Virus record (IMG/VR): IMGVR_UViG_3300046779_001841
Coordinates: 224,001-288,000 of that record
Direction: 5' to 3' (one strand)
Origin: a virus
Lineage: Duplodnaviria > Caudoviricetes
Length of the DNA stretch: 64,000 bases
Shown: piece after piece, positions 19,787-61,825 of the stretch
How the letters are laid out: each line of letters begins with the position of its first letter
How positions within the stretch are numbered: position 1 is the stretch's first letter
Translations under genes and position numbers: made by a program
Notes under the pieces: generated by a model
The model's database searches: none
What the model saw: the letters and a program-made list of their open reading frames with translations, nothing else
What the model was told of the DNA's origin: nothing

Positions 19787-19835
19787 GTTGCAAAGATAGC
19801 TAAACCACAAGTGTTATATATATGTCGATAATGAC
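19787..19835 (+). promoter_or_regulatory. Conserved promoter-like element, copy 1
   Basis: GTTGCAAAGATAGC-N8-AAGTGTTAT-N3-TATGTC-GATAATGA. Confidence 0.8.
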
Positions 19836-19861
19836 AAACTCTCAAAAAAGGAAAATGAGAT

Positions 19862-20083
19862 ATGAAAACTTTTACTCACAATGAAATTTTAGCAATGATA
19901 CAGGAAGCATTTCTTAAACCAATGTCTGAGATACTTGAAACAATCACAAAACTTGAAGCAAATGAAGTAAGAGATGAAGTAAGAATTGCTTATCTTTATA
20001 AAGAATACCATTCTAAAAACTCTGAAAGAGAAAAAGCAGTAAAAGCTATGGAAGACTACTATTTTAGAGAAGGAAAAAAATAA
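19862..20083 (+). CDS. Hypothetical protein
   Basis: RBS; directly after the promoter element. Confidence 0.7.
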   Translation: MKTFTHNEILAMIQEAFLKPMSEILETITKLEANEVRDEVRIAYLYKEYHSKNSEREKAVKAMEDYYFREGKK

Positions 20084-20367
20084 TGACTATCATCTATGAA
20101 ACTACCAATCCAATGTTTGAAACTATCTGTTCAAATATTGAACATTCTCATTCAATAGCTATAGTAACATATATTCAGAATATTGATGGTGGTGTTATTG
20201 TAAAACTTGATGATGTAGAAAGTATCTATGATAAGATAACTATCTTAGAAAAAGATGACAAGTATGATGTTTGTTTTGAATATCATGGTTCAAAGCCACA
20301 TACTGAAATCATAGAAAAAGAAAACTTAGGAATGTATTTAAGAAAAAAGACCACCATGTTTGTTTAG
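20083..20367 (+). CDS. Hypothetical protein
   Basis: Translationally coupled ORF. Confidence 0.65.
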   Translation: MTIIYETTNPMFETICSNIEHSHSIAIVTYIQNIDGGVIVKLDDVESIYDKITILEKDDKYDVCFEYHGSKPHTEIIEKENLGMYLRKKTTMFV

Positions 20368-20870
20368 CAAGGTGTCACTTTTAAAGGATATTTGAAAGTA
20401 TAATAAGTTGCCATGCAACCATGAATAGTTTTATGAACATATTCATGATCGTCTGGATTATCACTTTCAAAATAAAAGCGAACATAATCATAAGTTGTAC
20501 GATAGACACATAGAAAAAGAATTACATCTTCTCTCTTTCTATATTTAGAAAGCAATTCTTCATATATAGAAAAAGCACAATCATATTCCGATCTACCGAA
20601 AAGAACAGATTCGTATTTAGTATCATCATCAAAACGAAAAGGTGTGATCTGATTTTTTTTACAGAATGGGTAAAAAAACTTATTTCTTTCTTTAGCATTT
20701 AAATCTTTCACATCAAATCGGTATTCATCACCATATTTTTTTATGAGATTTTTATCAGTGCTATTTGCCAGTGCATCTAGCAGTATGTCTTTATCTTTAA
20801 AATAGAGATACATTTTTAATAATCCTTTTATATGTTGATAAATATATTGAAAGAATACAAAGGACTTCAA
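20364..20870 (-). CDS. Hypothetical protein (start probably internal, MYLYF)
   Basis: ORF with internal AAGGA RBS. Confidence 0.6.
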   Translation of the reverse strand: MKSFVFFQYIYQHIKGLLKMYLYFKDKDILLDALANSTDKNLIKKYGDEYRFDVKDLNAKERNKFFYPFCKKNQITPFRFDDDTKYESVLFGRSEYDCAFSIYEELLSKYRKREDVILFLCVYRTTYDYVRFYFESDNPDDHEYVHKTIHGCMATYYTFKYPLKVTPC

Positions 20871-20872
20871 TT

Positions 20873-21121
20873 ATGTTTAAACGATTCGCTAGAAATCTTA
20901 AAATAGAAAATGCTATTCATAATATAGATGATATGCTTGATGATATTATGGAAATAAAAGTATCTTTTCAAGATACCGAATCAATAGCATATACTGAAAT
21001 TCAAAATAGTAATCTCTTTCAACAAAACATTGGTGGTGTAATGCCAGCACTTAAAGCGATTTCCGAAGCAGAAAAACAACTTAATATTGCTAAAAACCTA
21101 TTGTTAAGACAAGGTAGATGA
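20873..21121 (+). CDS. Hypothetical protein
   Basis: 82-aa ORF with AAGGA RBS. Confidence 0.6.
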   Translation: MFKRFARNLKIENAIHNIDDMLDDIMEIKVSFQDTESIAYTEIQNSNLFQQNIGGVMPALKAISEAEKQLNIAKNLLLRQGR

Positions 21122-21122
21122 A

Positions 21123-21722
21123 ATGAGAAAATTAAGAATTTTAAGAGCAAAACTCGAATTTGTTAAAAACAAATTTATGGATCTTGATAATGCAACATTG
21201 CAAAATCACCCAGAAGATCAAGAAGAAATTTGGAATATGTATGAACAATCATACAAGAATATTGGTATGCACTTAAACAAGACTAAATTATTGACTAAGT
21301 ATGATGATTGGGCTTTAGAAGATGTGGATGAAGATCCATATGCAGACATTTTCATTACATTTACAGATACACCACATGGTAAAAAATTAGGTGTTGCTGG
21401 TAATGATGGTGGTTCTGAAGCTAAAACTGCTATTAAAAATGCTATTGGAAAATATCTTACAAAGCCAGGATATTATGCAGAACTTTCTTTAACTTTAGAA
21501 TACATTGCACAAAAACGCGGAGTGCCTTTCATTGATAATGAAGAAATTGTTACCGAAGTTTTAGGTGGCAAAGCGATTGAATGGGAAGGTGATGGTTATT
21601 ATTCAAGACAATTAGGTGAAATGGGTCGTGTTTCTAAAAGACTTTATGGTTATCCAAAAGGTGTAGATCAAGCATTATTACAAGATAGTCTTAGATTTAA
21701 AGGTGAAGTTAGAAATCATTAA
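21123..21722 (+). CDS. Hypothetical protein
   Basis: 199-aa ORF. Confidence 0.7.
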   Translation: MRKLRILRAKLEFVKNKFMDLDNATLQNHPEDQEEIWNMYEQSYKNIGMHLNKTKLLTKYDDWALEDVDEDPYADIFITFTDTPHGKKLGVAGNDGGSEAKTAIKNAIGKYLTKPGYYAELSLTLEYIAQKRGVPFIDNEEIVTEVLGGKAIEWEGDGYYSRQLGEMGRVSKRLYGYPKGVDQALLQDSLRFKGEVRNH

Positions 21723-21738
21723 AATATTTTTCATTTCT

Positions 21739-21786
21739 GTTGCAAAGATAGCTTATCCAGAAGTGTTATATATATGTCAGTAATGA
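21739..21786 (+). promoter_or_regulatory. Conserved promoter-like element, copy 2
   Basis: Matches consensus. Confidence 0.8.
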
Positions 21787-21811
21787 ATAACAAAACACAA
21801 AGGAAAAAAAA

Positions 21812-22102
21812 ATGATTGCACAAGAAATCTTAAATCAATTAGGTGGTGGTAGAAAATTAAGTTTCATGATTGGTCTTAAAAATGCTATTGGTAAACCTAA
21901 TGGACTTGATCTCAAGTTTCCTAAATCACCAAAAAAAATAAACTATGTCAAGATCACTTTGAATGAAAAAGATTTATATGATCTTGAGTTTTGTACTTTA
22001 CATAATAGTGTTCTTAAAACTATCTCTGTTGAAAATGACATCTATGCAGAAGATTTGAAAAGATGTTTTGAAAGAAACACTGCATACTATTTAACTTTTT
22101 AA
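21812..22102 (+). CDS. Conserved-looking small phage protein
   Basis: ILNQLGG...KITLNEKDLYDLEF...DIYAEDL pattern reminiscent of a common phage hypothetical family. Confidence 0.65.
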   Translation: MIAQEILNQLGGGRKLSFMIGLKNAIGKPNGLDLKFPKSPKKINYVKITLNEKDLYDLEFCTLHNSVLKTISVENDIYAEDLKRCFERNTAYYLTF

Positions 22103-23576: not shown

Positions 23577-23601
23577 TACATATTCTATAAGTATTTCATA
23601 T

Positions 23602-32125: not shown

Positions 32126-32698
32126 ATGTCTAAAAGACGATTCATCACAAAGAAAGAAGAATTAGCTTATCCTGTACTAGAAAAAATCTCTGGTGGGAAA
32201 AGATGTAATTTTTATACAAGAGATTTTTCTTGGTATAAGGCTTATTCCGAAACAGGTGGTTGGGGTTCAGTTCATTATTACAATGATAGCATTTCTAACT
32301 ATGAGTTAGATCGTGATCCTTATACTAGCTTATTTCAAGCTATGCCAGAAATTAAAGATAAATTTATTGAAATGGTAAAACTCGGTAATCAAGTCCAAGA
32401 TACTGCTCGTGTCTATGACAAGTTAAGAGAAGAGATCATTGACCAACTCAAAGATACTTTCTTTGATAGAAATGCTAATTCCGAACACGCTTTTATTGTT
32501 ATGACTGATGAACAAGAAGCACAATGGAAAGATTTAAAAGCAAATCGTGAAAAGATCGAACCACTTAAAGTTCGTTTAGGTGAATTACTTGAAGAATTAG
32601 ATAACATTCCTAAAGGTAAAAAAGATCCAAAACGAAAACCACTTGAAGATGAAATTGAAAGTATCACTACTCAACTAAGACTTGTTAATGCTATTTAA
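32126..32698 (+). CDS. Tandem paralog family member 4 (divergent)
   Basis: LEKISGGKRCN..., similar size and C-terminal coiled coil; ATG at 32126. Confidence 0.55.
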   Translation: MSKRRFITKKEELAYPVLEKISGGKRCNFYTRDFSWYKAYSETGGWGSVHYYNDSISNYELDRDPYTSLFQAMPEIKDKFIEMVKLGNQVQDTARVYDKLREEIIDQLKDTFFDRNANSEHAFIVMTDEQEAQWKDLKANREKIEPLKVRLGELLEELDNIPKGKKDPKRKPLEDEIESITTQLRLVNAI

Positions 32699-33109
32699 TA
32701 AACTTTCATAGATTGCTTGTTCATCTCTTATTTGTTTCATAAATTGATCATATAACACACTGCTTGTATCTAAAATCATATTTATTGCTTCTTCAAAATT
32801 TTGATCTGCACCATTGATCTTAAATGATGATCTAACATCATCTGGATAATATATGATAGGTAAAGGCTGGATTTTCCCTTCATATACAAATTTAATGGTC
32901 TTGTCTTTATCATTTATTTGTATTGCTATGAATGGTGAAAAAGGATTTGCTTTATACAAGACCTTTTCTTTACCTATCTCTTTTATTGTTCTATGACTTA
33001 TATCATCAAAAAAATTTCCCAAGATTTCTATCATTGGTTTTTGTTCATTTATGATTTCATCATTTGGTTTAGATCTACATCTACCATTTTTAAATTCTGT
33101 ATATTTCAT
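32675..33109 (-). CDS. Hypothetical protein
   Basis: 144-aa ORF, GGAGG RBS. Confidence 0.65.
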   Translation of the reverse strand: MKYTEFKNGRCRSKPNDEIINEQKPMIEILGNFFDDISHRTIKEIGKEKVLYKANPFSPFIAIQINDKDKTIKFVYEGKIQPLPIIYYPDDVRSSFKINGADQNFEEAINMILDTSSVLYDQFMKQIRDEQAIYESLLNSINKS

Positions 33110-33280
33110 CTATCCTCCATAATATTCTTCACAAGTGATTTGAGTTAAGAAATCATCAAATTTTTGTTCTTCAACTTTCTTTACTTCAACACCATCTTGT
33201 TCCCAAGAGAATTTATCATCATCACAATAAAATTCTTCACAAGTGATAGAACTTAAAAAATCATCAAAGTAGTTATTCAT
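33110..33280 (-). CDS. 56-aa acidic peptide with two FDDFL..ITCEE[FY]Y motifs (not in ORF track)
   Basis: MNNYFDDFLSSITCEEFYCDDDKFSWEQDGVEVKKVEEQKFDDFLTQITCEEYYGG; RBS and promoter element upstream. Confidence 0.75.
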   Translation of the reverse strand: MNNYFDDFLSSITCEEFYCDDDKFSWEQDGVEVKKVEEQKFDDFLTQITCEEYYGG

Positions 33281-33314
33281 AGGTTTTTTCCTTTTTTTAG
33301 GTTTTTGGTTTCAA

Positions 33315-33362
33315 TCATTACTGACATATATATAACACTTCTCATTGAGCAACCTTTGCAAC
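33315..33362 (-). promoter_or_regulatory. Conserved promoter-like element, copy 3
   Basis: Matches consensus. Confidence 0.8.
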
Positions 33363-33372
33363 AAGAATGAAA

Positions 33373-33633
33373 TTATTTTTTATAATTTACATCTTTCAAA
33401 ATGAGATATGCTTCATAAGTAGTATCATCACTGGCAAATGCACCTTGTGTTTCTTTACCATCTACATTGAGTGTATAGGTAGCATCATCACAAGTGAAAC
33501 TCAAGCTATTGAGATTGGTAGTAACTCCATTTGGTGTCAATGCAAGTGAATGGTTGGTAGTGGTATGCCAGAAACCTTTGTTAAAGGTATGATCTGAAGT
33601 ATTGAGCAATTTACAAATTTCATAAGCAAACAT
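33373..33633 (-). CDS. Hypothetical protein
   Basis: Follows promoter element, AAGGA RBS. Confidence 0.65.
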   Translation of the reverse strand: MFAYEICKLLNTSDHTFNKGFWHTTTNHSLALTPNGVTTNLNSLSFTCDDATYTLNVDGKETQGAFASDDTTYEAYLILKDVNYKK

Positions 33634-33650
33634 TTGAAATCCTTTGTTTA

Positions 33651-33699
33651 GTCATTATCGACATAACCATAACACTTGATCTCATGCAATCTTTGCAAC
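33651..33699 (-). promoter_or_regulatory. Conserved promoter-like element, copy 4
   Basis: Matches consensus. Confidence 0.8.
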
Positions 33700-33794
33700 G
33701 AATGTTAAAAAAATTAAATCTTTTTTTTAAGACAAAAAGAGTGTCTTTAATATAATAAGAATGAAAACACACAACTCGCACCAAGAATGTAGAT

Positions 33795-34073
33795 ATGTTT
33801 GACATTAAAAAGTATGTAAAAGACAACTTCAGTGATCTACTGATTAACATTATGAGTTTAGATACTAATATCATGTGTATGGGTATTTTGGAATCTCATT
33901 TCTTAGAAGATGATATGATCATCGTGTTCTCTATTAAAGAAGATGAAATGATCTTAGTAGAAAAACAATATTGGGATGAGATAGGCGATCTTGAATTGAA
34001 ACCTAAAATTTTAAAAAATGCAGTTTTCCATACCAGTCATCTGAATGAGATTAAAAACTTTATATTGGATTAA
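33795..34073 (+). CDS. Hypothetical protein, paralog of 30203
   Basis: Shared YVK.NFSD.L.NI motif. Confidence 0.55.
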   Translation: MFDIKKYVKDNFSDLLINIMSLDTNIMCMGILESHFLEDDMIIVFSIKEDEMILVEKQYWDEIGDLELKPKILKNAVFHTSHLNEIKNFILD

Positions 34074-34491
34074 TCAAAAACACTCGCACTGGAAAACCAC
34101 TTTGCCTATGTAAAATACCCATCTTTGTTAATCGTGTATTTCCAGCTATTAGTTCATATTCATCTGCATACTTCATAACGATTGGCAATTCTATTCTTAT
34201 ATCTGTTTGATTAAACATTTTTGTAATTCGTCTTTGACGATCTCTTGTTATATATTTTTTAAAAGCATACTGCATAGCATCCAAAGATTGATCATAATCA
34301 GTATTCTTGATTATACCAGCTAAACATAATGTTTCTGGATCTATCTCTTTTCCATGTTGTATAGCATTTAACCATGTTTCTTTAGTAGTGAATATGTGTG
34401 GGTATCTTTTTGCTTCACACCATTCAAAATCTGCATTTGGAGGATCAAAAATAATATTCATCATACCAAGATCATATAATTGATTGCACAA
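34060..34491 (-). CDS. ParB/Srx-like domain protein
   Basis: IELPIVMK...YELIAGNTRL. Confidence 0.5.
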   Translation of the reverse strand: MCNQLYDLGMMNIIFDPPNADFEWCEAKRYPHIFTTKETWLNAIQHGKEIDPETLCLAGIIKNTDYDQSLDAMQYAFKKYITRDRQRRITKMFNQTDIRIELPIVMKYADEYELIAGNTRLTKMGILHRQSGFPVRVFLINPI

Positions 34492-35624: not shown

Positions 35625-35674
35625 TTTTTAAACCCCATGTAAATATACAATAAAGTTTATCTATTTAATCAATA

Positions 35675-36442: not shown

Positions 36443-36540
36443 ATATTAAACAAAGAATAATAAAAACTTTATCAATGAGAAATTTTAATATCTCTTTTAT
36501 ATCTTTCTTTTGTTTATATTACTTAAACAAGGTAGATAAA

Positions 36541-37431: not shown

Positions 37432-37447
37432 AAATAAGATATAGAAA

Positions 37448-37762: not shown

Positions 37763-37769
37763 GTTTAAA

Positions 37770-38965: not shown

Positions 38966-39042
38966 TTTATGCTTTATCCTTTGTTAAGATAAAGCACTTA
39001 TATTTTACTTATGAGTTTTATCCACATGAAAGGAAGAATATT

Positions 39043-41004: not shown

Positions 41005-41292
41005 ATATAATTCACCTTTATGTGTCAATATCCAGCCACTCACTGCTATGGCAACTAAACCTTCTTCTCTTAAACTTTGTAAAAGTTCTACAAGATTTAA
41101 TTGATGCTTATTTTCTTCCATGAGAACTCTTATATCCATTGGTTCATCAATAGATAACATACTCAAAACACTTTTGATTGTTTCTGTATTAAACATCTCA
41201 TGGTATCTTGATCTCTTTTTTTCTTGCATCATTTCATGAAAATAAAAATTAATCATTCTCTTTTTCACTTTCTTCTTGCATTGCAAGTTCAT
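40996..41292 (-). CDS. Winged-helix-like small protein
   Basis: LLQSLREEGLV...GWILTHKGELYL; true start probably MINFYF. Confidence 0.5.
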   Translation of the reverse strand: MNLQCKKKVKKRMINFYFHEMMQEKKRSRYHEMFNTETIKSVLSMLSIDEPMDIRVLMEENKHQLNLVELLQSLREEGLVAIAVSGWILTHKGELYLN

Positions 41293-41389
41293 TCAAAATG
41301 GCTTGTTTTTCTTCTTCTGTAATTCCACTTTCACTATAAAATTCTTCACAAGTGATTTGTGATAAGAAATCATCAAAGTAGTTATTCAT
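41249..41389 (-). CDS. 46-aa acidic peptide with FDDFLSQITCEEFY motif
   Basis: Paralog of 33110..33280; ATG at 41389. Confidence 0.7.
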   Translation of the reverse strand: MNNYFDDFLSQITCEEFYSESGITEEEKQAILNELAMQEESEKEND

Positions 41390-41390
41390 A

Positions 41391-41588
41391 TTATCTATTT
41401 CCTTTCTTTTCAAAGAGTGCTGAAATTGTTTTGTCATCCCAAGCATCTGCAAATCTATTTTTAGATACTGGCTTTATGCCATATGCTAAAAGGTCTTGGT
41501 CTTTAAAACTCAATGCTCTTTTACTAGCAGTGGTTCTAGGTGTTTTCATGATTTTGCCAGCAGGCACATTTCTTAATGTTCTTGACAT
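41391..41588 (-). CDS. Small basic hypothetical protein
   Basis: Follows promoter element. Confidence 0.6.
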   Translation of the reverse strand: MSRTLRNVPAGKIMKTPRTTASKRALSFKDQDLLAYGIKPVSKNRFADAWDDKTISALFEKKGNR

Positions 41589-41601
41589 TTTTTTTCCTTT
41601 C

Positions 41602-41649
41602 TCATGTCTTACATATCTATAACACTTATCGTTTAGCTATCTTTGCAAC
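41602..41649 (-). promoter_or_regulatory. Conserved promoter-like element, copy 5
   Basis: Matches consensus. Confidence 0.75.
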
Positions 41650-41681
41650 CAACATGAAAAAAATTTTTATTTAGTGATGGA

Positions 41682-42035
41682 TTATTCATCATCATCTTCT
41701 TCTTCTAGTGCTTTTAAAATGATCAATTCATCTTTTCCATATTGCACACCATTTTTAAGCCAATCATATATGGATTCTTCTAATTCTTCACCGTCCTTTG
41801 AGAACACATCATTACCTTCTAAGACTACCTCACCAGATCTTCTTCCACATCTTGTTATTTCAAGATCAGTGTGAATTTCAGTGTCTTTTACTTTTAAAGT
41901 AAAAGACACTTCAATGTACTCACATTCAACATTTACACTGAGCATTAAGTGAATAAGATTCTCACTCCACTGAGAATCGACTACTCTCCATTCAACATTA
42001 CTACCAATTAATTTTTTTAGTTTATTCATATTCAT
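41682..42035 (-). CDS. Hypothetical acidic protein
   Basis: Leader AAGGATTAACACCT shared with 42919. Confidence 0.65.
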   Translation of the reverse strand: MNMNKLKKLIGSNVEWRVVDSQWSENLIHLMLSVNVECEYIEVSFTLKVKDTEIHTDLEITRCGRRSGEVVLEGNDVFSKDGEELEESIYDWLKNGVQYGKDELIILKALEEEDDDE

Positions 42036-42052
42036 AGGTGTTAATCCTTGTT

Positions 42053-42919
42053 TTAGTGGTGGATGATCTCAAGTTTTGTCAATTCAAAATTTTTGAGTAA
42101 ACTATCATAATTATCAATGTAAGGATTGCTAGAATGTTTTTTGAACAAATCATAAAAAACATGAACATTTTCATATGTTTTTGTCAAAAGATAATAGCTA
42201 CTTTTGATTTGATAAAAGTCAAAAGTAGTGTTGCTTTCAAGATCAATGTCAAACTTTTTCAATAACTCATTATGAGTGTTATAATGCAATCTATTCTTTT
42301 TGTTTGCATTCTCAAAATCTTTAAGAGTTTTCTGTTTCTCAACACTATTCAAAAAAGTATCTCTCATATCATTAATAATCTTCATCTGACTATCAAGGTC
42401 ATTTTTCAAGATACTTGGCATATACTTGAGAAATGAATCAAAATCCTTAATTTTACCATCAGAGATTTGTTTAAAATCATCTGTATTGAAAATTTCATTA
42501 TCTAATGATTTGATACTAATTAGATCACTATCCATATCTAAGTCTTCATAAAGACATTCATTAAATGGATAATCTATTGAAACTAGAACATCACCATTGA
42601 GTATTGTTTGCATTTTTCCAAAGTGTAGATCAACAGCATAATTAATACCTAAATCATGAGAGATGCAAATTGAAACATCATCTGAGAGATGAAATTCCAT
42701 ACCATATTCACCTTTTTCATCATCACAAATTTTATTTTTTGTGTTTTCAACAGAAAGAAATACATTTTTTACCATTTGATAGTATGCTTCTTTTACTTTA
42801 TCATGATAATTGTTAAAAGTCATAGTGGTATCCTCTTGTGTTTGAAAATCACTCATTGAAAGATCTAAGTTTTTCAAATCTGATAAACTTACTTGTGTTT
42901 TTCTTACTTCTTTTTTCAT
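42053..42919 (-). CDS. Hypothetical protein
   Basis: 288-aa ORF after promoter element. Confidence 0.7.
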   Translation of the reverse strand: MKKEVRKTQVSLSDLKNLDLSMSDFQTQEDTTMTFNNYHDKVKEAYYQMVKNVFLSVENTKNKICDDEKGEYGMEFHLSDDVSICISHDLGINYAVDLHFGKMQTILNGDVLVSIDYPFNECLYEDLDMDSDLISIKSLDNEIFNTDDFKQISDGKIKDFDSFLKYMPSILKNDLDSQMKIINDMRDTFLNSVEKQKTLKDFENANKKNRLHYNTHNELLKKFDIDLESNTTFDFYQIKSSYYLLTKTYENVHVFYDLFKKHSSNPYIDNYDSLLKNFELTKLEIIHH

Positions 42920-42946
42920 AGGTGTTAATCCTTTGTTTTTGGGTTA

Positions 42947-42994
42947 TCGTTATCGACTTAACAATAACACTTGTTGATTTGCTATCTTTGCAAC
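42947..42994 (-). promoter_or_regulatory. Conserved promoter-like element, copy 6
   Basis: Matches consensus. Confidence 0.75.
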
Positions 42995-43018
42995 AGAAAT
43001 GAAAATTTCAATAAAGTT

Positions 43019-43417
43019 TTATTTAGTGGTGGTTGTAGTTTTTTTAGGTAACCAAGATTCTAGTTTCTTCTGAATTGTTAAACAGTCTGCTTCTGTTTTT
43101 AATACTATAACATGATCTTCAATAGGCTTATTACCACCCATGAGAAATGAATTAAGAGAATATGCTTCAAATTTAACATGAGCATATTCATTTTTATTAC
43201 ATGAATATCTTCTATCAGGTAAGTAGATAGATATTTCATATTTATTATTGTTTAAAAGACTACTCAAGTAGTATTCTTTTCTTGTATAATCCCAACCATA
43301 TTCCTTAGTAGCTTCTACTACTTTTTCAATTTCAGTGGCACTATTTTGGATAGATGGTTCAATCCAATTTTTTCCAATCAAGGTAGCATAGTTTTTTAAA
43401 GTAATATCCATATCCAT
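43019..43417 (-). CDS. Hypothetical protein
   Basis: True start MDMDITL at 43417, because the track start runs through the promoter element. Confidence 0.65.
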   Translation of the reverse strand: MDMDITLKNYATLIGKNWIEPSIQNSATEIEKVVEATKEYGWDYTRKEYYLSSLLNNNKYEISIYLPDRRYSCNKNEYAHVKFEAYSLNSFLMGGNKPIEDHVIVLKTEADCLTIQKKLESWLPKKTTTTTK

Positions 43418-43443
43418 AACTTTTTTCCTTTGTTTTTTGTTTA

Positions 43444-43491
43444 TCGTTATCGACATATATATAACACTTCTCATTATGCTACCTTTGCAAC
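43444..43491 (-). promoter_or_regulatory. Conserved promoter-like element, copy 7
   Basis: Matches consensus. Confidence 0.8.
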
Positions 43492-43494
43492 ACA

Positions 43495-44196
43495 ATGGAT
43501 TTTTTTATGAAAATTTTAGGTATCAGCACAACTACTCATGCACCTGTTCCAGAACATCCAGAACCATCTGCATCTTTTGAAACATTAAAGATCTTATTAG
43601 ATATGCTAAAGGGATTTGGACATGATACATCTTTTATAGATGCCAATAAATTGCATATCATTAAAAACCTATCTTGCTATTCTACAGATAAAAAGAATTG
43701 TGGATCTAAAGATGCAGGTAAATATAGATGCTGGGCTACTCATCTTTCTCATGAAAATCCAGATGAATATGGTGGCAAAGATGAAATGACATATATATAT
43801 GATGGTATCGAGTGGGCAGATGTTATTATCTTTTCTACATCTGTTCGCTGGATGAACCATAGTGCATTATTCCAAACAATTATTGAAAGACTTAATGTTA
43901 TTGAAAATGTTCATAGTGTCTATGAAGAACCAAATTCTGTTTCTAATAAAAAAGTAGGCTTTATTGTGATTGGACAACATTATCAATCGCAACAGGTATC
44001 TAGTCACTTAATAGAAGTCTTTAGTCAATTAGGTTTCATTACAGATAGTAGAGATGGTTCTTTTACATGGCAAAGAACACTCAATAGAAATTTAGAACAA
44101 GATGGTAGCAATAGACCACATATAATATCATATCTTGCGACTTCTGAAGGTACAGATCAGCTTAACAATTTTATTAATTGGATTGAAAGCATTTAA
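43495..44196 (+). CDS. Flavodoxin-like NAD(P)H-dependent FMN reductase family
   Basis: MKILGISTT...CYS...C...C...WADVIIFSTSVRW...IIERL...KVGFIVIG. Confidence 0.7.
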   Translation: MDFFMKILGISTTTHAPVPEHPEPSASFETLKILLDMLKGFGHDTSFIDANKLHIIKNLSCYSTDKKNCGSKDAGKYRCWATHLSHENPDEYGGKDEMTYIYDGIEWADVIIFSTSVRWMNHSALFQTIIERLNVIENVHSVYEEPNSVSNKKVGFIVIGQHYQSQQVSSHLIEVFSQLGFITDSRDGSFTWQRTLNRNLEQDGSNRPHIISYLATSEGTDQLNNFINWIESI

Positions 44197-44324
44197 ACAT
44201 ATTTGTGATATACATATTGTGCATAGACAAATACAGGCACCAGTATATATGGATTATCATACATCCATATAAGAGTTATAGTTAGCAAGATAAGACATAA
44301 GATGATATGAAAATAATTATTCAT
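44193..44324 (-). CDS. 43-aa hydrophobic peptide (not in track)
   Basis: MNNYFHIILCLILLTITLIWMYDNPYILVPVFVYAQYVYHKYV. Confidence 0.4.
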   Translation of the reverse strand: MNNYFHIILCLILLTITLIWMYDNPYILVPVFVYAQYVYHKYV

Positions 44325-44335
44325 TTTTTGAACCT

Positions 44336-44384
44336 ATTGCAAAGATAGCTTATCCACAAGTGTTATTTATATGTCAATAATGAC
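44336..44384 (+). promoter_or_regulatory. Conserved promoter-like element, copy 8
   Basis: Matches consensus (A instead of G at position 1). Confidence 0.8.
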
Positions 44385-44404
44385 TTAACACAAAGGAAAA
44401 GAAA

Positions 44405-44692
44405 ATGGAAAATTTAATTCAAGCACTCAAAAACAGATTTAACAATAGTGAAGTCAATATCAATGGTAAAACCATTGAATTGGTGATGGATAATTTTCTT
44501 GCTAAGATTGAGATATATCAAGAAGAAGATGAATATGAATATCATTATAGTACTTATAATGTGATTTGGTTTTTTGATTGGAATAAAAAGAAAGGTTTTC
44601 TTAGACCTATAAGTGAAAAAGATTTTGAAGCATCAATACCTAATCTTTTAGCTAGTCTTAGTTCTGATTATTATGAATCTCAAGAAGATTAA
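44405..44692 (+). CDS. Hypothetical protein
   Basis: Follows promoter element. Confidence 0.65.
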   Translation: MENLIQALKNRFNNSEVNINGKTIELVMDNFLAKIEIYQEEDEYEYHYSTYNVIWFFDWNKKKGFLRPISEKDFEASIPNLLASLSSDYYESQED

Positions 44693-46609: not shown

Positions 46610-47431
46610 ATGAAAGGTATAAAAATGGATTTGAGAGATAATTTTAAAAGCAAATGTCCTGTTCGATACAATACAGATGGTACTCATTGGTATTGTAAAA
46701 GACAACTTAGTGAAAAACAAGAGATCGAAAGTAAAACCTGTAATTATTCAAGATGCCCTGGCAGAGAATTGACGGCTGAAGAAGAAACAGAACGATTACT
46801 TCAAATCGAATCTAAAATGAAAGACACTAAAACAGAAAGTAAGAGAGATCCTATGGATGCACTTATTAGAAGAATGAAAAGAGAACTTGAGCGAATTGAA
46901 GCTGAAGAACTTAATTTTAAAAAGTGTGATATTAAAGTAAATGATAATAATAAATGGTTTTGTAAAAAGAACATGGATAGTCCTTTACCTATGACTGATA
47001 AAGAATGTTATCGTGATTCTTGTCCTGGTCGTAAATTGACTTATGAAGAAGAAACTGAAGAAACTCGTAGAAAAGAAAATGTTCAAAAAGAATTAAATGC
47101 TTTGGAAAAGAAAGCAGTAAAGAAGAACACTAAAAAGAAACCAATCGATATTGTAGAAGAAAAACTTATCGTAGAAACCACACCTATTATAGTAGAAACA
47201 CCTATTGTAGTAGAAACACCTATTGTAGAAATCGCACCTGTTATTGTAGAAACACCTAAAACAGAAGTTATCTTAAAAAAGTGTGAATGGCATATTTGTC
47301 CAAATTATTTTGAAAGTGGTGGTAAAAAAGAAAAGTTTTGTTGCGAAAAGTGTAGACGAAAAGACAATAGATTAAAATCAAGAAGAAGATGTGCTTTAAG
47401 AAAGAAAGAGAGTCTTGCCAAAGGATTGTAA
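46610..47431 (+). CDS. Cys-rich multi zinc-finger protein
   Basis: Two C..W[YF]CK..C...CPGR.LT.EEE repeats, VETP linker, C-terminal CEWHIC..FCCEKC. Confidence 0.65.
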   Translation: MKGIKMDLRDNFKSKCPVRYNTDGTHWYCKRQLSEKQEIESKTCNYSRCPGRELTAEEETERLLQIESKMKDTKTESKRDPMDALIRRMKRELERIEAEELNFKKCDIKVNDNNKWFCKKNMDSPLPMTDKECYRDSCPGRKLTYEEETEETRRKENVQKELNALEKKAVKKNTKKKPIDIVEEKLIVETTPIIVETPIVVETPIVEIAPVIVETPKTEVILKKCEWHICPNYFESGGKKEKFCCEKCRRKDNRLKSRRRCALRKKESLAKGL

Positions 47432-48454
47432 TTTCTTGGTCATTTTTTCTAAATGAAATCTTAATTGTCTTTCTGGAATACCAATAGATTTAGACCATAC
47501 AGTTACACTTGGATAAGTTTGATATAGCTTATCTAAATATAATTGATTATAAAATTCATAACCATCTGGAAATTTCATTTTTAAACATTCAAGGACTTTC
47601 TCATTTAGGTATTTTTCTCTAATGCTTAAATCAAAATCTTCTTCTTCTTCATTAAACATATCTAAAACTTCACCTGTTTCATCTTTGATTTCTTTTGCCA
47701 CTACTTTAGCTTCAAAGACTTGTTCAATTCCTAAACTTCTCTTCATTAATTGTGCTTGTGTTCTTGCACCTTCTTTTTCTCTTGATAAAGCATCTTTGCC
47801 AGCTTTATGACCTAATCTAATTAACCATTGTGTAAAATGATGCCAAATTGCACCAACTTTAATAGTATTTTCTTTCTCTAAGACTGGTCTTAGATGGTCT
47901 ACTTCTACCATCCATACCATAAAATCTCTTACTCTATCTACATGATCTGCAACTGCTATTTTAAAATAGGTAGCATTTTTTAAATTCTTGGTTAATTCAA
48001 TCTGCAATTTTTCAAATCTATTATGTGCAGGATGGAAAATCCATTGTTCTGTTAAATTCACATCATTTACTTTTTTAGTAAATTTTGGTCTTGCTTTGAC
48101 AATAGGTTCTTCTTTTTTAGGCATCATCTCTTCTTCAATTCTTTCAAGAAGAGCATTTTTTCTTGCTTCTATTAAAGAATAATAATGATCTAATACATCT
48201 TGTTTAGATACAGATTGCCTTTGTATGCTATTTTGTCCAATCCATTCATTATAATGGTCTAAGACATCTTGAGATGAAACACTTTTTCTTTGTATGCTAG
48301 ACCATTCATTATAATGATCTAATACATCTGATGCAGTTACACATTGTCTTTGTATCTTGTTTTGTTCATTCCATTCATTATAATGATCTAACACATCTTG
48401 AGAAGATACACATTGTCTTTTAATAGGTAAAATAGTAGTATTTAGATATGACAT
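47396..48454 (-). CDS. Repeat-containing protein with C-terminal sigma-region-4-like HTH
   Basis: Four DVLDHY repeats; C-terminal WSKSIGIPERQLRFHLEKMTKKL. Confidence 0.6.
   Translation of the reverse strand: MSYLNTTILPIKRQCVSSQDVLDHYNEWNEQNKIQRQCVTASDVLDHYNEWSSIQRKSVSSQDVLDHYNEWIGQNSIQRQSVSKQDVLDHYYSLIEARKNALLERIEEEMMPKKEEPIVKARPKFTKKVNDVNLTEQWIFHPAHNRFEKLQIELTKNLKNATYFKIAVADHVDRVRDFMVWMVEVDHLRPVLEKENTIKVGAIWHHFTQWLIRLGHKAGKDALSREKEGARTQAQLMKRSLGIEQVFEAKVVAKEIKDETGEVLDMFNEEEEDFDLSIREKYLNEKVLECLKMKFPDGYEFYNQLYLDKLYQTYPSVTVWSKSIGIPERQLRFHLEKMTKKLQSFGKTLFLS
48180..48420 (-). repeat. Four in-frame 20-23-codon repeats
   Basis: QRQCVSSQDVLDHYNEW-type units. Confidence 0.85.
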
Positions 48455-50750: not shown

Positions 50751-51917
50751 TTATGAGAATAAAGGTGTTACTTTCAAACTATTCCTTTCAGCATTTAGTT
50801 TTTCCAGTAAATGCAAAATCACTAATTGATGAAAGGGTCGCAATGTTTTTAATGTAGTGTTTTTAAATTCATATGTATTGATCTTGGTCTTGTTCAATCT
50901 TTCTAAAACAAGTTCTTCAAAATCTATTGTATATACAATACCTTTCTTAGTGCAAAAATCTTGAACCATCTCTCTAAAGGATCTTTCTTCTTTATACAAA
51001 CATAACACTGCATCACGATAAAGAATTTCACAGAAACCTTTGCTGACATCTAAAGCATCCACTGGTGTGAAATCTAAATCTTTGGTTGTTGCTGTTTTAG
51101 AAAGATACTCACTACCTATATTGTGTTTAATCAATAAACTATTGATTGCTCCACTCAATTCTAAATATACATTTAATGGCAACGACCAATTCTCTTGTTC
51201 TCCATCTATAAGAATAGATAGTCTTTCATTTAACCATTCTTGTATTGTCATCATCTTTTGTGCTTGTGATTCATATTCTTTTGTCATGAACTTTCTCAAA
51301 CCCTCTAAAAGTATCACTATACTTTCATTGGTTTTTTCAAACACTTGTCTTGAACTTGGATAAATTGTTGTCATTGTTTGAATTGGACTACTTCTTTCAT
51401 ACCCACGATTTTTGAGAAGAGCATTAAGAGTACCTGATGCACCTTTCATTCTTTTATTTGCAGAAAACCAATCAACACCTATGCACATCAAAAAATCTTC
51501 AATTTCTAATCCTTGTGGATAACTTGGATTTTGATATTCTTTTGCAAATCTTTCAATATCAAAAGAGATACCAAATCGTGTCTTAATTAAAGACCAAAGA
51601 TCAGTCTGTAATTCAGTCTGTAATTCAGTCTGTAATTCAACGACCTCGGGCTTCTTTTCTTCTTGAATAGGTTGAACTTCAACTTTTTTATCTGTAACAC
51701 CATTTAAATTGTTGAAAAGTGTTTCTAAATCTTTTAAGTTAAAACCTAATTCAGAAGCCTCCAAAAGATAACTCAAGATCTCATGTGCCTTTTCTACACC
51801 ATGTGTAGCAACAATACCTTGATAGCTATCAAAACCTAAAACTTTTAGTTGTCTTGCTTTTTGAATGAATTGGATCATGTCCATAGTCTTTTTCCTTTTT
51901 AAAGAAAGTAGGTGCAT
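50751..51917 (-). CDS. Hypothetical protein
   Basis: 388-aa ORF; ELQT x3 repeat at 51601-51636. Confidence 0.7.
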   Translation of the reverse strand: MHLLSLKRKKTMDMIQFIQKARQLKVLGFDSYQGIVATHGVEKAHEILSYLLEASELGFNLKDLETLFNNLNGVTDKKVEVQPIQEEKKPEVVELQTELQTELQTDLWSLIKTRFGISFDIERFAKEYQNPSYPQGLEIEDFLMCIGVDWFSANKRMKGASGTLNALLKNRGYERSSPIQTMTTIYPSSRQVFEKTNESIVILLEGLRKFMTKEYESQAQKMMTIQEWLNERLSILIDGEQENWSLPLNVYLELSGAINSLLIKHNIGSEYLSKTATTKDLDFTPVDALDVSKGFCEILYRDAVLCLYKEERSFREMVQDFCTKKGIVYTIDFEELVLERLNKTKINTYEFKNTTLKTLRPFHQLVILHLLEKLNAERNSLKVTPLFS

Positions 51918-52662
51918 CTTGCTAGAGCAATATACTTATATGAAATTAAATCATGGTGGACACAAAGTTTTAAAAAAAAACGAAAAATTTATCATCAATA
52001 ATCTTGAACTCACTGCTTTAGAATTTAAAAAAAAATTTGGCAAAATTCCAGAACTCTACTTTGAAATCAAATTACCACTCCATCTCAAAGGTCTTTCTTC
52101 TATCTTTGATATTATTAAACATAAAGAAGAAATTAAATCAAGCAAGAGAAAACTCGGTGTGGATGTTGAAGCTAAATCAGAAGACATCAAATCCATCTTC
52201 TATAAACATTTTGCCAAAATGTGTATTCAATCTAAATATGATCCAGAAGAAATGCTTCAAGAAATCTATCTTGGTATTCTTCATCGCAATAAAGGTAATT
52301 GTCCTTTTGATCCAGCTAAATCTTCATTATCTACTTATATTGTTATGGTAAGTAGATGTATTCTGTTTAACATCTTCAATAAAGAAAATAAAACAAGATC
52401 TAGGCTTTTTGAACCTAAAGAAAAAGATGATTTGTTTAGACTTATCAAAGACAATCATGACTTTGATACTAAATTCTTAATTGAAGAAGCTAGAAATCTT
52501 TGTAAAACAGAAGACATGAAAAATGTTTTTGATCAAATGTTGCTTGGATATAACATCACTCAAATCTCAAGCAACTTAAAAATTGAAAACAGAAAAGTCA
52601 GTGAAATGACTTCTAAAATCAAAAAAACTATATCACCTTTGTTTTATAAGGATACCGAATGA
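51865..52662 (+). CDS. Phage sigma70/ECF-like RNA polymerase sigma factor
   Basis: Region 2-like EEMLQEIYLGIL...FDPAKSSLSTY; region 4-like GYNITQISSNLKIENRKVSEM. Confidence 0.7.
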   Translation: MNWIMSIVFFLFKESRCILLEQYTYMKLNHGGHKVLKKNEKFIINNLELTALEFKKKFGKIPELYFEIKLPLHLKGLSSIFDIIKHKEEIKSSKRKLGVDVEAKSEDIKSIFYKHFAKMCIQSKYDPEEMLQEIYLGILHRNKGNCPFDPAKSSLSTYIVMVSRCILFNIFNKENKTRSRLFEPKEKDDLFRLIKDNHDFDTKFLIEEARNLCKTEDMKNVFDQMLLGYNITQISSNLKIENRKVSEMTSKIKKTISPLFYKDTE

Positions 52663-53261
52663 TTACTTTCTTCTATTCCACTATTAATGCTGGCAAAACT
52701 GCTAATCTCATTTTATCTGCACACGCTTGTTCTCAAAGAAATATTAAACATCTTATTTTTGTTCCTGCTGTTGCGAGTGGTAGAGATGGTTTTAATAAAG
52801 TCAGTTCAAGAATTGGCATACATCAAGATGCTATATCTGTTAATGAAAATGACAATCTCTATGAAATGGTTTCTACCGAAATCATTACAAATAAAATAGA
52901 TAACCATCCTTTACAAATTATCTTTGTAGATGAATCCCAATTCTTAACACCTAAGCAGGTTGCTCAACTTACTCAAATTTGTGATATTTACAATGTGCAA
53001 GTTCATGCTTATGGTTTGAGAACAGATTTTAAAGGTGAACCATTTGAAGCAAGTAAATATCTTTTAGCTTGGGCTGATGAAATTAAAGAAATTGAAACTT
53101 GGGCTGAAGAAAGTGATACTGCACAAAAAGCACTTATGAATATTAAAATTGATGAATATGGCAATCGCATTACCAGTGGTGATTCTGTTTCTGTTGGTTT
53201 TGCATATAAAGCAGTTTCTCGATCTGAATTTAACATTAACAGAAATTGGAATAGAAAATGA
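52659..53261 (+). CDS. tdk: Thymidine kinase
   Basis: STINAGKT, IFVDESQF, YGLRTDFKGEPFEASKYLLAWADEI. Confidence 0.9.
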   Translation: MITFFYSTINAGKTANLILSAHACSQRNIKHLIFVPAVASGRDGFNKVSSRIGIHQDAISVNENDNLYEMVSTEIITNKIDNHPLQIIFVDESQFLTPKQVAQLTQICDIYNVQVHAYGLRTDFKGEPFEASKYLLAWADEIKEIETWAEESDTAQKALMNIKIDEYGNRITSGDSVSVGFAYKAVSRSEFNINRNWNRK

Positions 53262-59797: not shown

Positions 59798-59824
59798 ATA
59801 GTCGATCTATATTAAATGAATATC

Positions 59825-60802
59825 TTATTGTTCTGCCAATGCTTTATCAATCGCTTTTACAACACCATCTGTTTCAATCGCTTTAATTTTAGCTAAAGTT
59901 TCTGCATCATTACCATATTTCTCTACTGCTAACTTTACACGATGTTGCCAGTGCTTTGATTTATCCCATGCAAATTCTTCACTTTGTCCAATAATCACTG
60001 CACCTGTTGATGGATTTGATTCCAATGCTTCGATTGTTTGTAAATCTTCTTGAATTGATGATGTTGCTTCTACAATAGGTTCAAGATTTAATTCACTTGA
60101 TGGTTCTTCACCAGCTACTGTAACTTCTTCTGCTTGATTTAAAGCATCTGTTAATTCATCTTGTGTAATTACAGATCCTACAATCTCACCACCTTGTTGA
60201 TCTTCTACCACTACTGGTTTTCTTACTGCATCTCTTTGTAAGTTTTCTAACTTTGCCATCTCTTTGGTAATTTGACTACCATCAGAAATCACTATCTTTT
60301 GCTTACTTGCAGTCTTTAATGGTATCTTTACTGATTCTGCACCTTGTTGTGATGATACATTATCCATTGCACTTGATGCTCCTGCGATTGTTGCACCACT
60401 CTTATTTTCTACCTTATGCACTGGACGAATATCTGCATCTTGACTTTCTACTTGAATTGGAAATTTCTTTTCAACAATCACTTCTTTCTTTGATACTTCG
60501 CCTACTGACTTTTCTTCATCATAGACTTTTTGTACTGGCATTTCTTTCTTTGGCATTGCAACAGGTGCAGTTGCTTTCTTTTCTTCTACATAATCTGCTG
60601 GATCTACGATTGTTAACCAGCCTCTTTTAATGCCTGATTTAAGTTCTGGCATGACTACATCTTGATTGCCTACTCGCAATGTTACTCCATCAAATTCTAC
60701 AACATCACCTTGATATAAATTTCTTTCAAGTTTTCCCAAGTGGATTGTTGTATTTGCCTTTACACGAATAAACACACCTTTATTGAAATTCACTTCTGAC
60801 AT
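59825..60802 (-). CDS. Hypothetical protein downstream of the capsid block
   Basis: 325-aa ORF with conserved-looking N- and C-domains and an acidic linker. Confidence 0.65.
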   Translation of the reverse strand: MSEVNFNKGVFIRVKANTTIHLGKLERNLYQGDVVEFDGVTLRVGNQDVVMPELKSGIKRGWLTIVDPADYVEEKKATAPVAMPKKEMPVQKVYDEEKSVGEVSKKEVIVEKKFPIQVESQDADIRPVHKVENKSGATIAGASSAMDNVSSQQGAESVKIPLKTASKQKIVISDGSQITKEMAKLENLQRDAVRKPVVVEDQQGGEIVGSVITQDELTDALNQAEEVTVAGEEPSSELNLEPIVEATSSIQEDLQTIEALESNPSTGAVIIGQSEEFAWDKSKHWQHRVKLAVEKYGNDAETLAKIKAIETDGVVKAIDKALAEQ

Positions 60803-60875
60803 TTCATTCTTCCTTTTTAATTTGAGTTTAGAAACATATTATATATACATAAACTATAAACATTTTATCAAAAAT

Positions 60876-60911
60876 AAAAAAAGACTAAGTATTTTTTTAC
60901 CTAGTCTTTTT
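60876..60911. terminator. Probable bidirectional intrinsic terminator
   Basis: AAAAAGACTA...TAGTCTTTTT. Confidence 0.5.
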
Positions 60912-61036
60912 CTCTTATTTAATGTGCCTTAATCAATATTGACTAAGGCACAATACACAACAACAAACACACTTATAAGCAAGAGTGCTTATCTCTTTAT
61001 AAAACATTCTCTTTTTTACTGCAAATTTTTTTTCAA

Positions 61037-61369
61037 TCAATTATTTTCTTCATTCTCAAGAGATTTCATATATTCATTTTCTAACTCAAGATTAGAAATT
61101 TCTTCATCAAACATATTTGATATTGTTTGACATAACAAAGCCAAATCATAATTATCAACATCTAATAAATCTTCCCAGTCATATCCTATATCAAATCTAT
61201 ATACAGATCTTTGCACCAGTGCATTGTCTGTTGTTAATGATAAAGAATATTCAATTCCTTCTTTCTCTAAAAGGACAACAAGTAATTCATCATTCACACT
61301 CTCTACTTCTGCAGTGATTGAGTGATTAGTAAGAGCATTTAAAAGTTTGGAAATCATTGAGTTCATCAT
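61037..61369 (-). CDS. Hypothetical acidic protein
   Basis: Follows promoter element. Confidence 0.65.
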   Translation of the reverse strand: MMNSMISKLLNALTNHSITAEVESVNDELLVVLLEKEGIEYSLSLTTDNALVQRSVYRFDIGYDWEDLLDVDNYDLALLCQTISNMFDEEISNLELENEYMKSLENEENN

Positions 61370-61386
61370 TTTTCATTTTCCTTTTA

Positions 61387-61435
61387 GTCATTATCGACAT
61401 ATCTATAACACTTCTGGATAAGCTATCTTTGCAAC
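61387..61435 (-). promoter_or_regulatory. Conserved promoter-like element, copy 9
   Basis: Matches consensus. Confidence 0.8.
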
Positions 61436-61450
61436 CAACAATAAAATATT

Positions 61451-61750
61451 TTATAATTGCCAATAAGCATTTTCTGTTTTGATTAATCTGTTTATCTTTT
61501 TTGTTAGTTGAACTGGATCTGTATATTCTCTATCATTGATAGATTCAAACATATCTAAGTCTTCATTGGTATGAACTTTAAGAAACACATCATATTCATC
61601 TTTTTCACAAGAGATCACTAAATCAATATGACTTGCTTCTAAAGCAGGGTGCTTGATCTTAATGCTCTTACAAGCCACTACTTGACTATAATCAATACCT
61701 TTGCTTTTAAGATTGAGTTTAAGAGCATTTAAAATTTCTAACTTTGTCAT
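61451..61750 (-). CDS. Hypothetical protein
   Basis: Follows promoter element. Confidence 0.65.
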   Translation of the reverse strand: MTKLEILNALKLNLKSKGIDYSQVVACKSIKIKHPALEASHIDLVISCEKDEYDVFLKVHTNEDLDMFESINDREYTDPVQLTKKINRLIKTENAYWQL

Positions 61751-61780
61751 AGGTTTTTTTCCTTGATCTTGAGTTTGTCT

Positions 61781-61825
61781 TCATTGACATACCTATAACA
61801 CTTATGACCTAGCTACCTTTGCAAC
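61781..61825 (-). promoter_or_regulatory. Conserved promoter-like element, copy 10
   Basis: Matches consensus. Confidence 0.75.

Follow-up and report, generated by a model that had tools for sequence, protein, structure and literature searches.

The early promoters of phage T4 are several dozen strong promoters that keep the A-11 and T-7 of the sigma-70 −10 sequence. Lambdoid morons are units of promoter, gene, and terminator, and phage-encoded sigma cascades are known, such as gp28 and gp33/34 of SPO1. The closest described systems are the promoter(early)-stem-loop elements (PeSLs) of RB49/phi1, PST/T4, and nt-1/KVP40, which are repeated early promoters with AT-rich upstream DNA, a stem-loop, a Shine-Dalgarno sequence, and a start codon; they cluster in hyperplastic regions where recombination deletes and inserts open reading frames (ORFs) lacking known relatives (ORFans), and their consensus differs per lineage (PMC2839356, PMC4122927). 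Here, we analyze a repeated element in an uncultivated lake jumbo phage, represented by an IMG/VR record of 316,221 bp with 31% G+C; bases 224,001 to 288,000 of that record, a stretch of 64,000 nucleotides, are referred to below as the window. We propose, with a probability of roughly 0.7, that this element is the main pre-replicative (early or middle) promoter of the phage, that it sits in a module of about 100 bp and is read by a bacterial RNA polymerase holoenzyme, and that its copies recombine as cassettes.

The likeness to PeSLs is broad. The element is an intergenic sequence with many copies, a promoter-like two-block layout, and AT-rich upstream DNA, though it is sigma-70-like in layout only. 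A Shine-Dalgarno sequence (AAAGGA) and an ATG stand at the 3′ end of the module, with a same-strand start codon 62 to 83 nt from position 1 (the G of GTTGCAAAG, from which we number the element) in 46 of the 47 copies and at 176 in the exception. The copies are dense in ORFan islands that differ between relatives, single units have been gained or lost between neighboring copies, and the consensus is specific to the lineage. Unlike a PeSL, however, the module has no G/C-rich terminator stem-loop, only a 3- to 4-bp stem at the likely start site with no U tract, and terminator-like sites were not found at unit ends, where stacked units lie 10 to 25 nt apart. In addition, the phage falls outside the T4-like group (it has a phage G-type head protein), the −10 lacks A-11, and the cargo genes are purged of CG dinucleotides. 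Because it has neither a terminator stem-loop nor the sigma-70 consensus and T4-like background, we regard the element as a PeSL-like variant and not as a member of the PeSL group. As in T4 early promoters, conservation extends beyond the hexamers, A/T tracts lie upstream, and the genes served appear to be scattered, small, non-essential early genes, but A-11 and T-7 are missing. As with lambdoid morons, self-contained accessory units lie between conserved genes and vary among relatives, but here one promoter is common to all units, the units have no terminators of their own, and together they would form the regulon of a lytic-type jumbo phage.

We searched the window for the core pattern GTTGCAAAGRTWGC-N8-AAGTGTTAT, allowing up to 3 mismatches, with 100 dinucleotide-preserving shuffles as the control. 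There are ten matches (19787+, 21739+, 33362−, 33699−, 41649−, 42994−, 43491−, 44336+, 61435−, and 61825−) and none in the shuffles. Nine of the ten have the exact core; the copy at 44336 has one mismatch. The initial annotation of this DNA had listed ten copies, giving the low ends of the minus-strand ones, and all of them are present where claimed, with none expected by chance. Across the whole genome, a pattern scan found 46 to 47 copies (47 in the set used below), versus 0 for a reversed control pattern. The stacked tandem units that had been described are seen at 33699/33362, 43491/42994/41649, and 61825/61435, and the common leaders are there as well: AAGGATTAACACCT before 42035 and 42919, and GGAAAAAA(A)CCT before 33280 and 61750. 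The islands had also been placed among structural genes, which is true of the pair at 61 kb that follows the major head gene, but the other islands adjoin a helicase, an FMN-reductase-like gene, adenylosuccinate synthetase, and unknown genes. Outside this genome, an element pattern scan of IMG/VR matched 0 contigs, 80 loci related to the major head protein held no copy at up to 5 mismatches, and a phage collection searched for a DNA relative of this phage returned none. An Rfam scan of the window detected a single tRNA only, the motif not being in Rfam, and a literature word search for it gave nothing relevant.

A position profile built from the 47 copies shows how the module is ordered: an A5/T3 UP-like tract, GTTGCAAAG-RTWGC-N8-AAGTGTTAT, TATGTC, a GTCR-N4-YGAC inverted repeat, an A-rich leader, AAAGGA, and ATG. 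Upstream, the A-tract occupies −17 to −13 and the T-tract −10 to −8. The 5′ block has GTTGCAAAG at 1 to 9 and RTWGC at 10 to 14, with G13 and C14 invariant, followed by semi-variable positions 15 to 22. In the second block, AAGTGTTAT lies at 23 to 31 and TATGTC at 35 to 40, where T37, G38, and T39 are invariant or nearly so. RATAAY at 41 to 46 and GAC at 47 to 49 carry the conservation to about position 50, and an A/C-rich leader follows. Conservation into the spacer and past the likely +1, pointed out in the initial annotation, thus reaches further than claimed, upstream into the A/T tract and downstream to about 50. That the copies point at a ribosome-binding site and small ORFs holds genome-wide, as every one of the 47 heads a same-strand start codon.

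This anatomy constrains the start site. Because the shortest leaders have a ribosome-binding site from about position 50 onward, the transcript has to begin upstream of about 45. That excludes RATAAY at 41 to 46 as the −10 (its positions 42 and 46 also vary) and leaves TTGCAA (2 to 7) and TGTTAT (26 to 31), 18 bp apart, as −35 and −10. Transcription would then start near G38-R41, most likely at G38, preceded by T37. The hexamers had been noted as 18 nt apart and without the usual A at −11, which is correct: that base is G in 47/47 copies. If the −10 is taken as extended (TGT-TATANN, start at R41), the spacer grows to 21 bp and −7 is A in 22 copies, G in 15, and T in 9, with no conserved T. Neither reading shows the A-11, T-7, and 16- to 18-bp distance from a TTGACA-like −35 that mark a primary-sigma promoter. 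Three further readings were rejected: a sigma-28 site (GTCGATAA), as position 41 is A in 26 copies and no TAAA lies 15 nt upstream; a sigma-54 site, as the GG element is absent; and a Bacteroidota TAnnTTTG site, as the spacing is wrong and the motif is absent from G001, the nearest large relative. The phage is present in lake DNA runs (X1-X5 and X7), and searches for sequencing runs holding the sequence found no RNA run among the holders listed. Overall, the anatomy supports the view that a single promoter class, whose −10 is non-canonical, serves the whole regulon.

At the likely start site is the inverted repeat at positions 38 to 50. GTCR (38 to 41) is complementary to YGAC (46 to 49), and 86.5% of stem cells pair. 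Pair 41:46 is AU in 18, GU in 9, GC in 8, and other in 4 of 39 copies, and only 1 of 500 shuffles reaches the covariation observed at the stem. If transcription starts at G38, the GUCR-N4-YGAC stem would sit at the very 5′ end of the RNA, where it is predicted to fold in 37 of the 47 copies (−1.9 to −4 kcal/mol at 37°C; mean −4 at 15°C). With a short stem, one varying pair, and copies that are related to each other, this is modest evidence for a hairpin. The palindrome (TGTCRATAAYGACA) could instead be a DNA operator at which a dimeric phage repressor closes the regulon later in infection. Such an operator would fit a 14-bp near-perfect repeat that is centered on 43/44 and overlaps the likely start site, whose strict form occurs inside elements in 17 of 17 cases and nowhere else in the genome, and which is lineage-specific, nearly all G001 promoters lacking it. 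However, pair 41:46 allows G-T (9 to 11 copies) but almost never A-C (once among all 47 copies), a pattern better explained by RNA pairing than by independent half-sites, and a candidate repressor was not identified; we consider the operator doubtful.

Do the copies also move genes? Two strain-level differences each remove a single unit. In sequencing run X7, a 6.6-kb contig (∼97% identical) joins 41660 to 43024, and the missing 41661-43023 is exactly one unit, made up of the 288-aa and 117-aa ORFs, their promoter at 42994, and its UP tract; 33 diverged letters at the joint belong to the end of the gene before it. A metagenome contig, L124 (96.6% identical), carries the flank upstream of the element at genome 38791, a hybrid promoter, and the gene behind the element at genome 38280, with the unit between missing. 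In the region collinear with G001, homologues exist there for 17 of 33 first genes behind the element versus 135 of 168 other genes (p = 0.0014). The 110-aa ORF at 61037-61369 has its sole G001 homologue in a different island, flanked by two promoters of the G001 type. For about 20 of the 47 first genes, a paralogue stands behind a copy at another genomic location, and one four-member cargo family spans genome 118 kb and 285 kb, its DNA homology extending from one element as far as the next. Downstream of the head gene, this genome has two cassettes, two relatives (L035 and L037; 270 bp) have nothing, and a third (L039) has a different ORF. The one-unit deletions, the dispersed paralogous cassettes, and the lower cargo conservation bear out the earlier proposal that the copies serve as points of recombination and cassette exchange, and island content, compared among relatives, is variable and not invariant.

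Several other joints and insertions were seen in the same data. Most joints between elements (e.g., 33297-42964 and 41673-44337) were rejected as rearrangements, being contigs of other element copies that cross-map onto the window; their inserted letters match the copies at genome 117579 and 104873/104903. Metagenome matches L122, L125, L126, L127, and L129 (35 to 44% GC) are unrelated chance matches, and L128, whose first 172 nt map to a distant gene, was treated as a possible assembly chimera. The X7 strain also has 366 other letters in place of 37 at 36446-36484, in the divergent intergenic region 35675-36442(−)/36475(+) and not at an element. In strains with an identical head protein, a LAGLIDADG homing endonuclease gene lies between the head-gene terminator and copy 10 (L170:2322-3251 and L172:2122-3051), with its own AAGGAGG ribosome-binding site and no element; a sister phage has another ORF at this insertion site (L039:11030-11960).

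Comparison with relatives shows that the promoter family has evolved in concert. Close relatives of the head protein, which is of the phage G type and 37.6% identical to that of phage G, are encoded by ∼575 IMG/VR contigs, and those fetched lack the element. The nearest large relative, G001 (195,689 bp), is collinear with genome 102-301 kb at ∼80% nucleotide identity and carries 26 copies of a sister promoter, (T/A)GAAC-TTGCAA-TAAA..N15..AGTGTT-TA, plus one copy of the type found here. Nine orthologous genes have the present type in this genome and the G001 type in G001. The common core is TTGCAA-N15/16-AGTGTT, whereas the second TWGC, the GC at 13-14, and the palindrome are lineage-specific. 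Over the 56-bp promoter region, pairwise identity averages 0.76 among the copies of this genome and 0.71 among those of G001, versus 0.61 for orthologous pairs and 0.62 for random cross-genome pairs. Since orthologous promoters are no more alike than random cross pairs, the family changed together, including a one-base spacer change across all its members. Inside the element, 149 of 153 polymorphic site pairs show all four gametes, as expected if copies recombine. A 48th, degenerate copy (GTTGCAATGAAC..AAGTGTTATAGATAT) lies outside the window in a gene-poor stretch at genome 95,800-95,860 (+) and resembles the single copy of this type in G001. A distant relative, G004 (38% GC), has no TTGCAA/AGTGTT element, and its frequent 10-mers are coding words. 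It does have about ten intergenic modules of a G-run/C-run stem-loop followed by TTGATAATA-AGGGTAAA (in L154-L169; e.g., G004:142140-142230 and 142950-143040), which look like classic terminator-promoter cassettes of the PeSL type.

The genes behind the element are small (median 120 aa for the 47 first genes, versus 174 aa genome-wide). Recognizable cargo across the genome includes an NAD-dependent DNA ligase, an AAA ATPase, an HDAC-family deacetylase, and an HTH/HNH protein, alongside ORFans. Eleven window cargo ORFs were scanned against Pfam and PHROG: nine had no family match, one matched only phrog_9437, and two had only sub-threshold Pfam matches. These scans lend no support to the earlier suggestion that the cargo serves host takeover or anti-defense. 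With a ligase, an AAA ATPase, and a deacetylase among the cargo, we read the regulon as pre-replicative, and this gene content supports the view that the element heads pre-replicative-type and ORFan genes, with timing that would be early or middle. The cargo is also marked by composition: 44 of 47 first genes hold no CG (0.56 versus 8.9 CG per kb; p = 6e-22). In the window, a CG-free zone outlines each unit, and the element tolerates CG up to position 47 and almost none after. G001 orthologues of the cargo keep their CG (4.9 versus 0.1 per kb), so the purge is specific to the lineage with the extended element. One gene without an element, encoding 352 aa at 47396-48454 (−), likewise has no CG in 1,059 nt; TTGACA-N17-TAAACT lies upstream of it at 48568-48540.

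We envision the following mechanism. A holoenzyme would read the UP-like A/T tract together with the −35 TTGCAA and, 18 bp on, the −10 TGTTAT, and would start transcription at G38, the invariant G of TATGTC. A small 5′-terminal hairpin (GUCR-N4-YGAC), acting as an mRNA stabilizer or operator, may then form within the first 12 nt of the RNA, ahead of the A-rich leader with its strong ribosome-binding site and of the start codon. At the DNA level, the 47 copies would act as long repeats through which homologous recombination deletes, duplicates, and relocates promoter-plus-gene units, while gene conversion between copies would keep them alike. Islands of small genes could in this way become hyperplastic, like the PeSL cassettes of T4-like phages.

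What reads the promoter? With G invariant at −11 and canonical sigma-70 sites not enriched genome-wide (100 found versus 116 expected), we slightly prefer a non-housekeeping sigma. The best candidate is an extracytoplasmic function (ECF)-like sigma factor of ∼240 aa with sigma-2 and sigma-4 domains, encoded in the window at 51940..52662 (+). It has a weak PF04542 (sigma-2) match, matches phrog_1740 ("RNA polymerase sigma factor") at E = 6.5e-6, and matches TIGR02937 (ECF sigma superfamily) over positions 11-161 of 165, covering both domains, at E = 2e-4. Its homologues are named sigma-70 family by JGI, with homologues of 45 to 51% identity in contigs of up to 372 kb. For its AlphaFold model (mean pLDDT 71), the best 30 PDB matches are all sigma factors, nearly all of the ECF type, and the fold matches include an isolated −35-binding domain (root-mean-square deviation of 1.9 Å). 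ECF sigmas read two-block promoters with a 16- to 17-bp spacer and a −10 that needs no A-11 (GT-containing, e.g., CGT or GTC), which makes the protein a reasonable candidate reader. The element shares with ECF (group 4) promoters and phage sigma cascades its two blocks (spaced TGCAAA-N17-TGTT), its −10 without A-11, and the presence of a phage-encoded two-domain sigma. Unlike ECF promoters, its −35 is TTGCAA and not an AAC-type motif, and whereas ECF sigmas are usually autoregulated, the candidate gene has no element. Dependence on a phage factor is plausible, and we see slightly less than an even chance that a non-housekeeping sigma, with this protein the best candidate, reads the element. 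A bolder version is a tentative proposal: the ECF-like sigma of the phage, and not the primary sigma of the host, would read the 47-member regulon after being produced very early or carried in by the virion, and the promoter, spacer change, hairpin, and CG purge would form one lineage-specific package, spread and homogenized by gene conversion. If true, this would be a self-contained mobile early-expression system for plugging new accessory genes into an uncultivated jumbo phage. The sigma gene itself begins head to head with the promoter of its divergent neighbor, the gene at 50751-51884, and the two overlap.

Nearly as likely as a phage sigma is that the primary sigma holoenzyme of the host reads TTGCAA/TGTTAT or the extended −10 directly, helped by the UP-like tract and needing no phage factor; the additional conservation would then reflect only strength tuning and homogenization of copies. 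The layout suits this, with two blocks, a 17- to 18-bp spacer, and the A5/T3 tract at about −54 to −45, where the C-terminal domain of the alpha subunit binds. Host sigma-70 reads T4 early promoters and PeSLs, which are also AT-rich upstream; the phage needs promoters active from time zero, and its genome shows no enrichment of canonical sigma-70 sites elsewhere; and read as TGnTAT, the element has T-12, A-11, and T-10 near-invariant. However, the 18-bp reading puts G at −11 in all copies, the extended −10 comes with the long spacer and the variable −7 described above, and in G001, the TA shifts by one base relative to TG while the distance of AGTGTT from TTGCAA is kept. A poor −10 for primary sigma would also be expected if, as in T4 middle mode, a phage activator bound the tandem TTGC/TWGC words or AAGTGTT and recruited a remodeled host holoenzyme. 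The invariant spacer bases (AAG 7-9, GC 13-14, and AAG 23-25), the 9-bp distance between TTGC and TWGC, and middle-type cargo functions such as the ligase would suit this, but TWGC and GC 13-14 are absent from the 26 G001 promoters driving orthologous genes and so lie outside the common functional core. A T4 middle promoter combines a MotA box at −30 with a sigma-70 −10; here, no sigma-70 −10 lies 12 bp from TTGC, and Pfam searches of the genome for the MotA C-terminal domain (MotCF, PF09158) and AsiA (PF09010) found no match, which is a weak test; we consider an activator improbable. Still further from what we observe is an intergenic repeat that is no promoter and serves site-specific recombination or a packaging-type function. 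The coincidence of indel end points with elements would be explained, but not the strict orientation and fixed distance to the ribosome-binding site and start codon in 47 copies, the −35/−10-like blocks with a UP-like tract, or the retention of the core before orthologous G001 genes, and no integrase-type partner was noted; we give this idea almost no weight.

Phage polymerases, either multisubunit (phiKZ/AR9 type, with a DFDGD motif) or single-subunit (T7/N4 type), were also sought. The multisubunit RNA polymerase motif D[FYW]DGD does not occur in six frames, which is a weak test, and a PF00940 search for a T7-type polymerase gave nothing, but neither did its positive control. Of ten giant proteins (1,257 to 2,847 aa), nine have no PHROG match and the 1,720-aa one matches a tail protein family only; none matched a polymerase or transcription family. 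Those without a match include three paralogues (1,871 to 2,141 aa) and the 2,847-aa protein, encoded outside the window at genome 187736-206003 and 120915-129458. A virion-borne enzyme among them is possible.

Several points weigh against the promoter-cassette proposal. Promoter activity and timing are read from anatomy and gene content. G at −11 is unfavorable for any primary sigma, while the link between the ECF-like sigma and the element is one that we infer, and the sigma gene has neither a recognizable promoter of its own nor an element copy. With a phage sigma, moreover, the infection would have to be launched by something else, and the genome showed no further abundant two-block class. 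The hairpin has only 3 to 4 bp and one covarying pair among related copies, and it is missing from 10 to 12 copies. As for cassette movement, the clean strain-level indels number only two, the organization is unchanged in two other strains (exact-protein look-ups around 43495-44196 and 21123-21722), and breakpoints relative to G001 cannot be placed within the element at 80% identity. Concerted evolution, finally, could reflect selection by a lineage-specific factor and not gene conversion.

The element pattern nevertheless tags candidate early accessory genes in this phage, as a related pattern does in the sister lineage, and the tagged genes are places to look for host-takeover and counter-defense functions in a widespread freshwater and marine jumbo phage group without a cultured member. 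Promoter-mediated modular shuffling, previously described for T4-like phages, extends to an unrelated giant phage, and with lineage-specific promoters before orthologous genes, including a one-base spacer change, the family is a clean case of concerted evolution of promoters. The unusual −10 and the phage ECF-like sigma allow a direct, cheap in vitro test even without a host.

In the window, the units are arranged as follows, all with the exact core except copy 8. Copy 1 (19770..19836, +) has the UP-like tract, TTGCAA/TGTTAT, and a GTCG-ATAA-TGAC inverted repeat, and heads CG-free ORFs of 73 and 94 aa (19862..20367, +) with no Pfam or PHROG match; G001 has a weak homologue of the 94-aa ORF and none of the 73-aa ORF. 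Copy 2 (21722..21788, +) heads a CG-free 96-aa ORF (21812..22102, +) that matches phrog_9437, of unknown function, at E = 3e-25; the CG-free zone ends there, the next gene having 8 CG. Copies 4 and 3 are the upper and lower units of a stack. Copy 4 (33650..33716, −) heads a CG-free 86-aa ORF (33373..33633, −), whose stop lies ∼10 nt before copy 3 and so leaves no room for a terminator. Copy 3 (33313..33379, −) heads CG-free ORFs of 56 and 144 aa (32675..33280, −) without G001 homologues, the 56-aa ORF being paralogous to the 46-aa ORF at 41249-41389. Copy 7 (43442..43508, −) tops the three-unit stack, back to back with the FMN-reductase-like gene, and heads a CG-free 132-aa ORF (43019..43417, −) without a G001 homologue. 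Copy 6 (42945..43011, −) follows, with the CG-free 288-aa ORF and the 117-aa ORF (41682..42919, −), which have no G001 homologue; the 117-aa ORF has a paralogue at genome 38.8 kb. Copy 5 (41600..41666, −), at the bottom, has the shortest leader, with ATG at position 62 and the ribosome-binding site from ∼50, and its CG-free 65-aa and 46-aa ORFs (41249..41588, −) are conserved in G001, where the ortholog carries a G001-type promoter. Copy 8 (44319..44385, +), with A and not G at position 1, heads a CG-free 95-aa ORF (44405..44692, +). Beside the major head protein gene (61973..62854, −; phrog_2522, E = 1e-51), a conserved anchor, lies the variable island with copies 9 and 10. Copy 10 (61776..61842, −) lies ∼80 nt after the head gene terminator and heads a 99-aa ORF (61451..61750, −) of the four-member family, each member with its own element and the other three in tandem at genome 117.6-119 kb. 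Copy 9 (61386..61452, −) heads the CG-free 110-aa ORF (61037..61369, −), whose only G001 homologue has 34% amino acid identity. Metabolic and replication genes neighbor the islands: a DNA helicase (16180-19662), adenylosuccinate synthetase (39371-40441), the FMN-reductase-like protein (43495-44196), and thymidine kinase (52659-53261).

The element is one of at least two promoter classes in this genome and, judging by the genes it heads, most likely the earlier one. A second promoter-like class without a −35, (A/T)TAA-TATAAGT(A), is found 23 to 76 nt before the start codons of ∼24 other genes, at ∼10 times the genome-frequency expectation; its window sites are at 23586(+), 30150(+), 30506(+), 39002(−), 45412(−), 51940(−), and 60977(−). 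This class resembles the T4 late promoter TATAAATA, and genes of the distant relative G004 also show enrichment of the word ATTTATAAG upstream. A candidate small RNA with no Rfam match, at ∼60865-60985 (−), occupies the gap that separates the last cassette from the next conserved gene; it has a TATAAGT promoter and, besides a G/T-rich stretch, a hairpin and a clear terminator. It is conserved in relatives (L037:4090-4330), where it is preceded by a TTGCAA-N19-TGTTTAT promoter.

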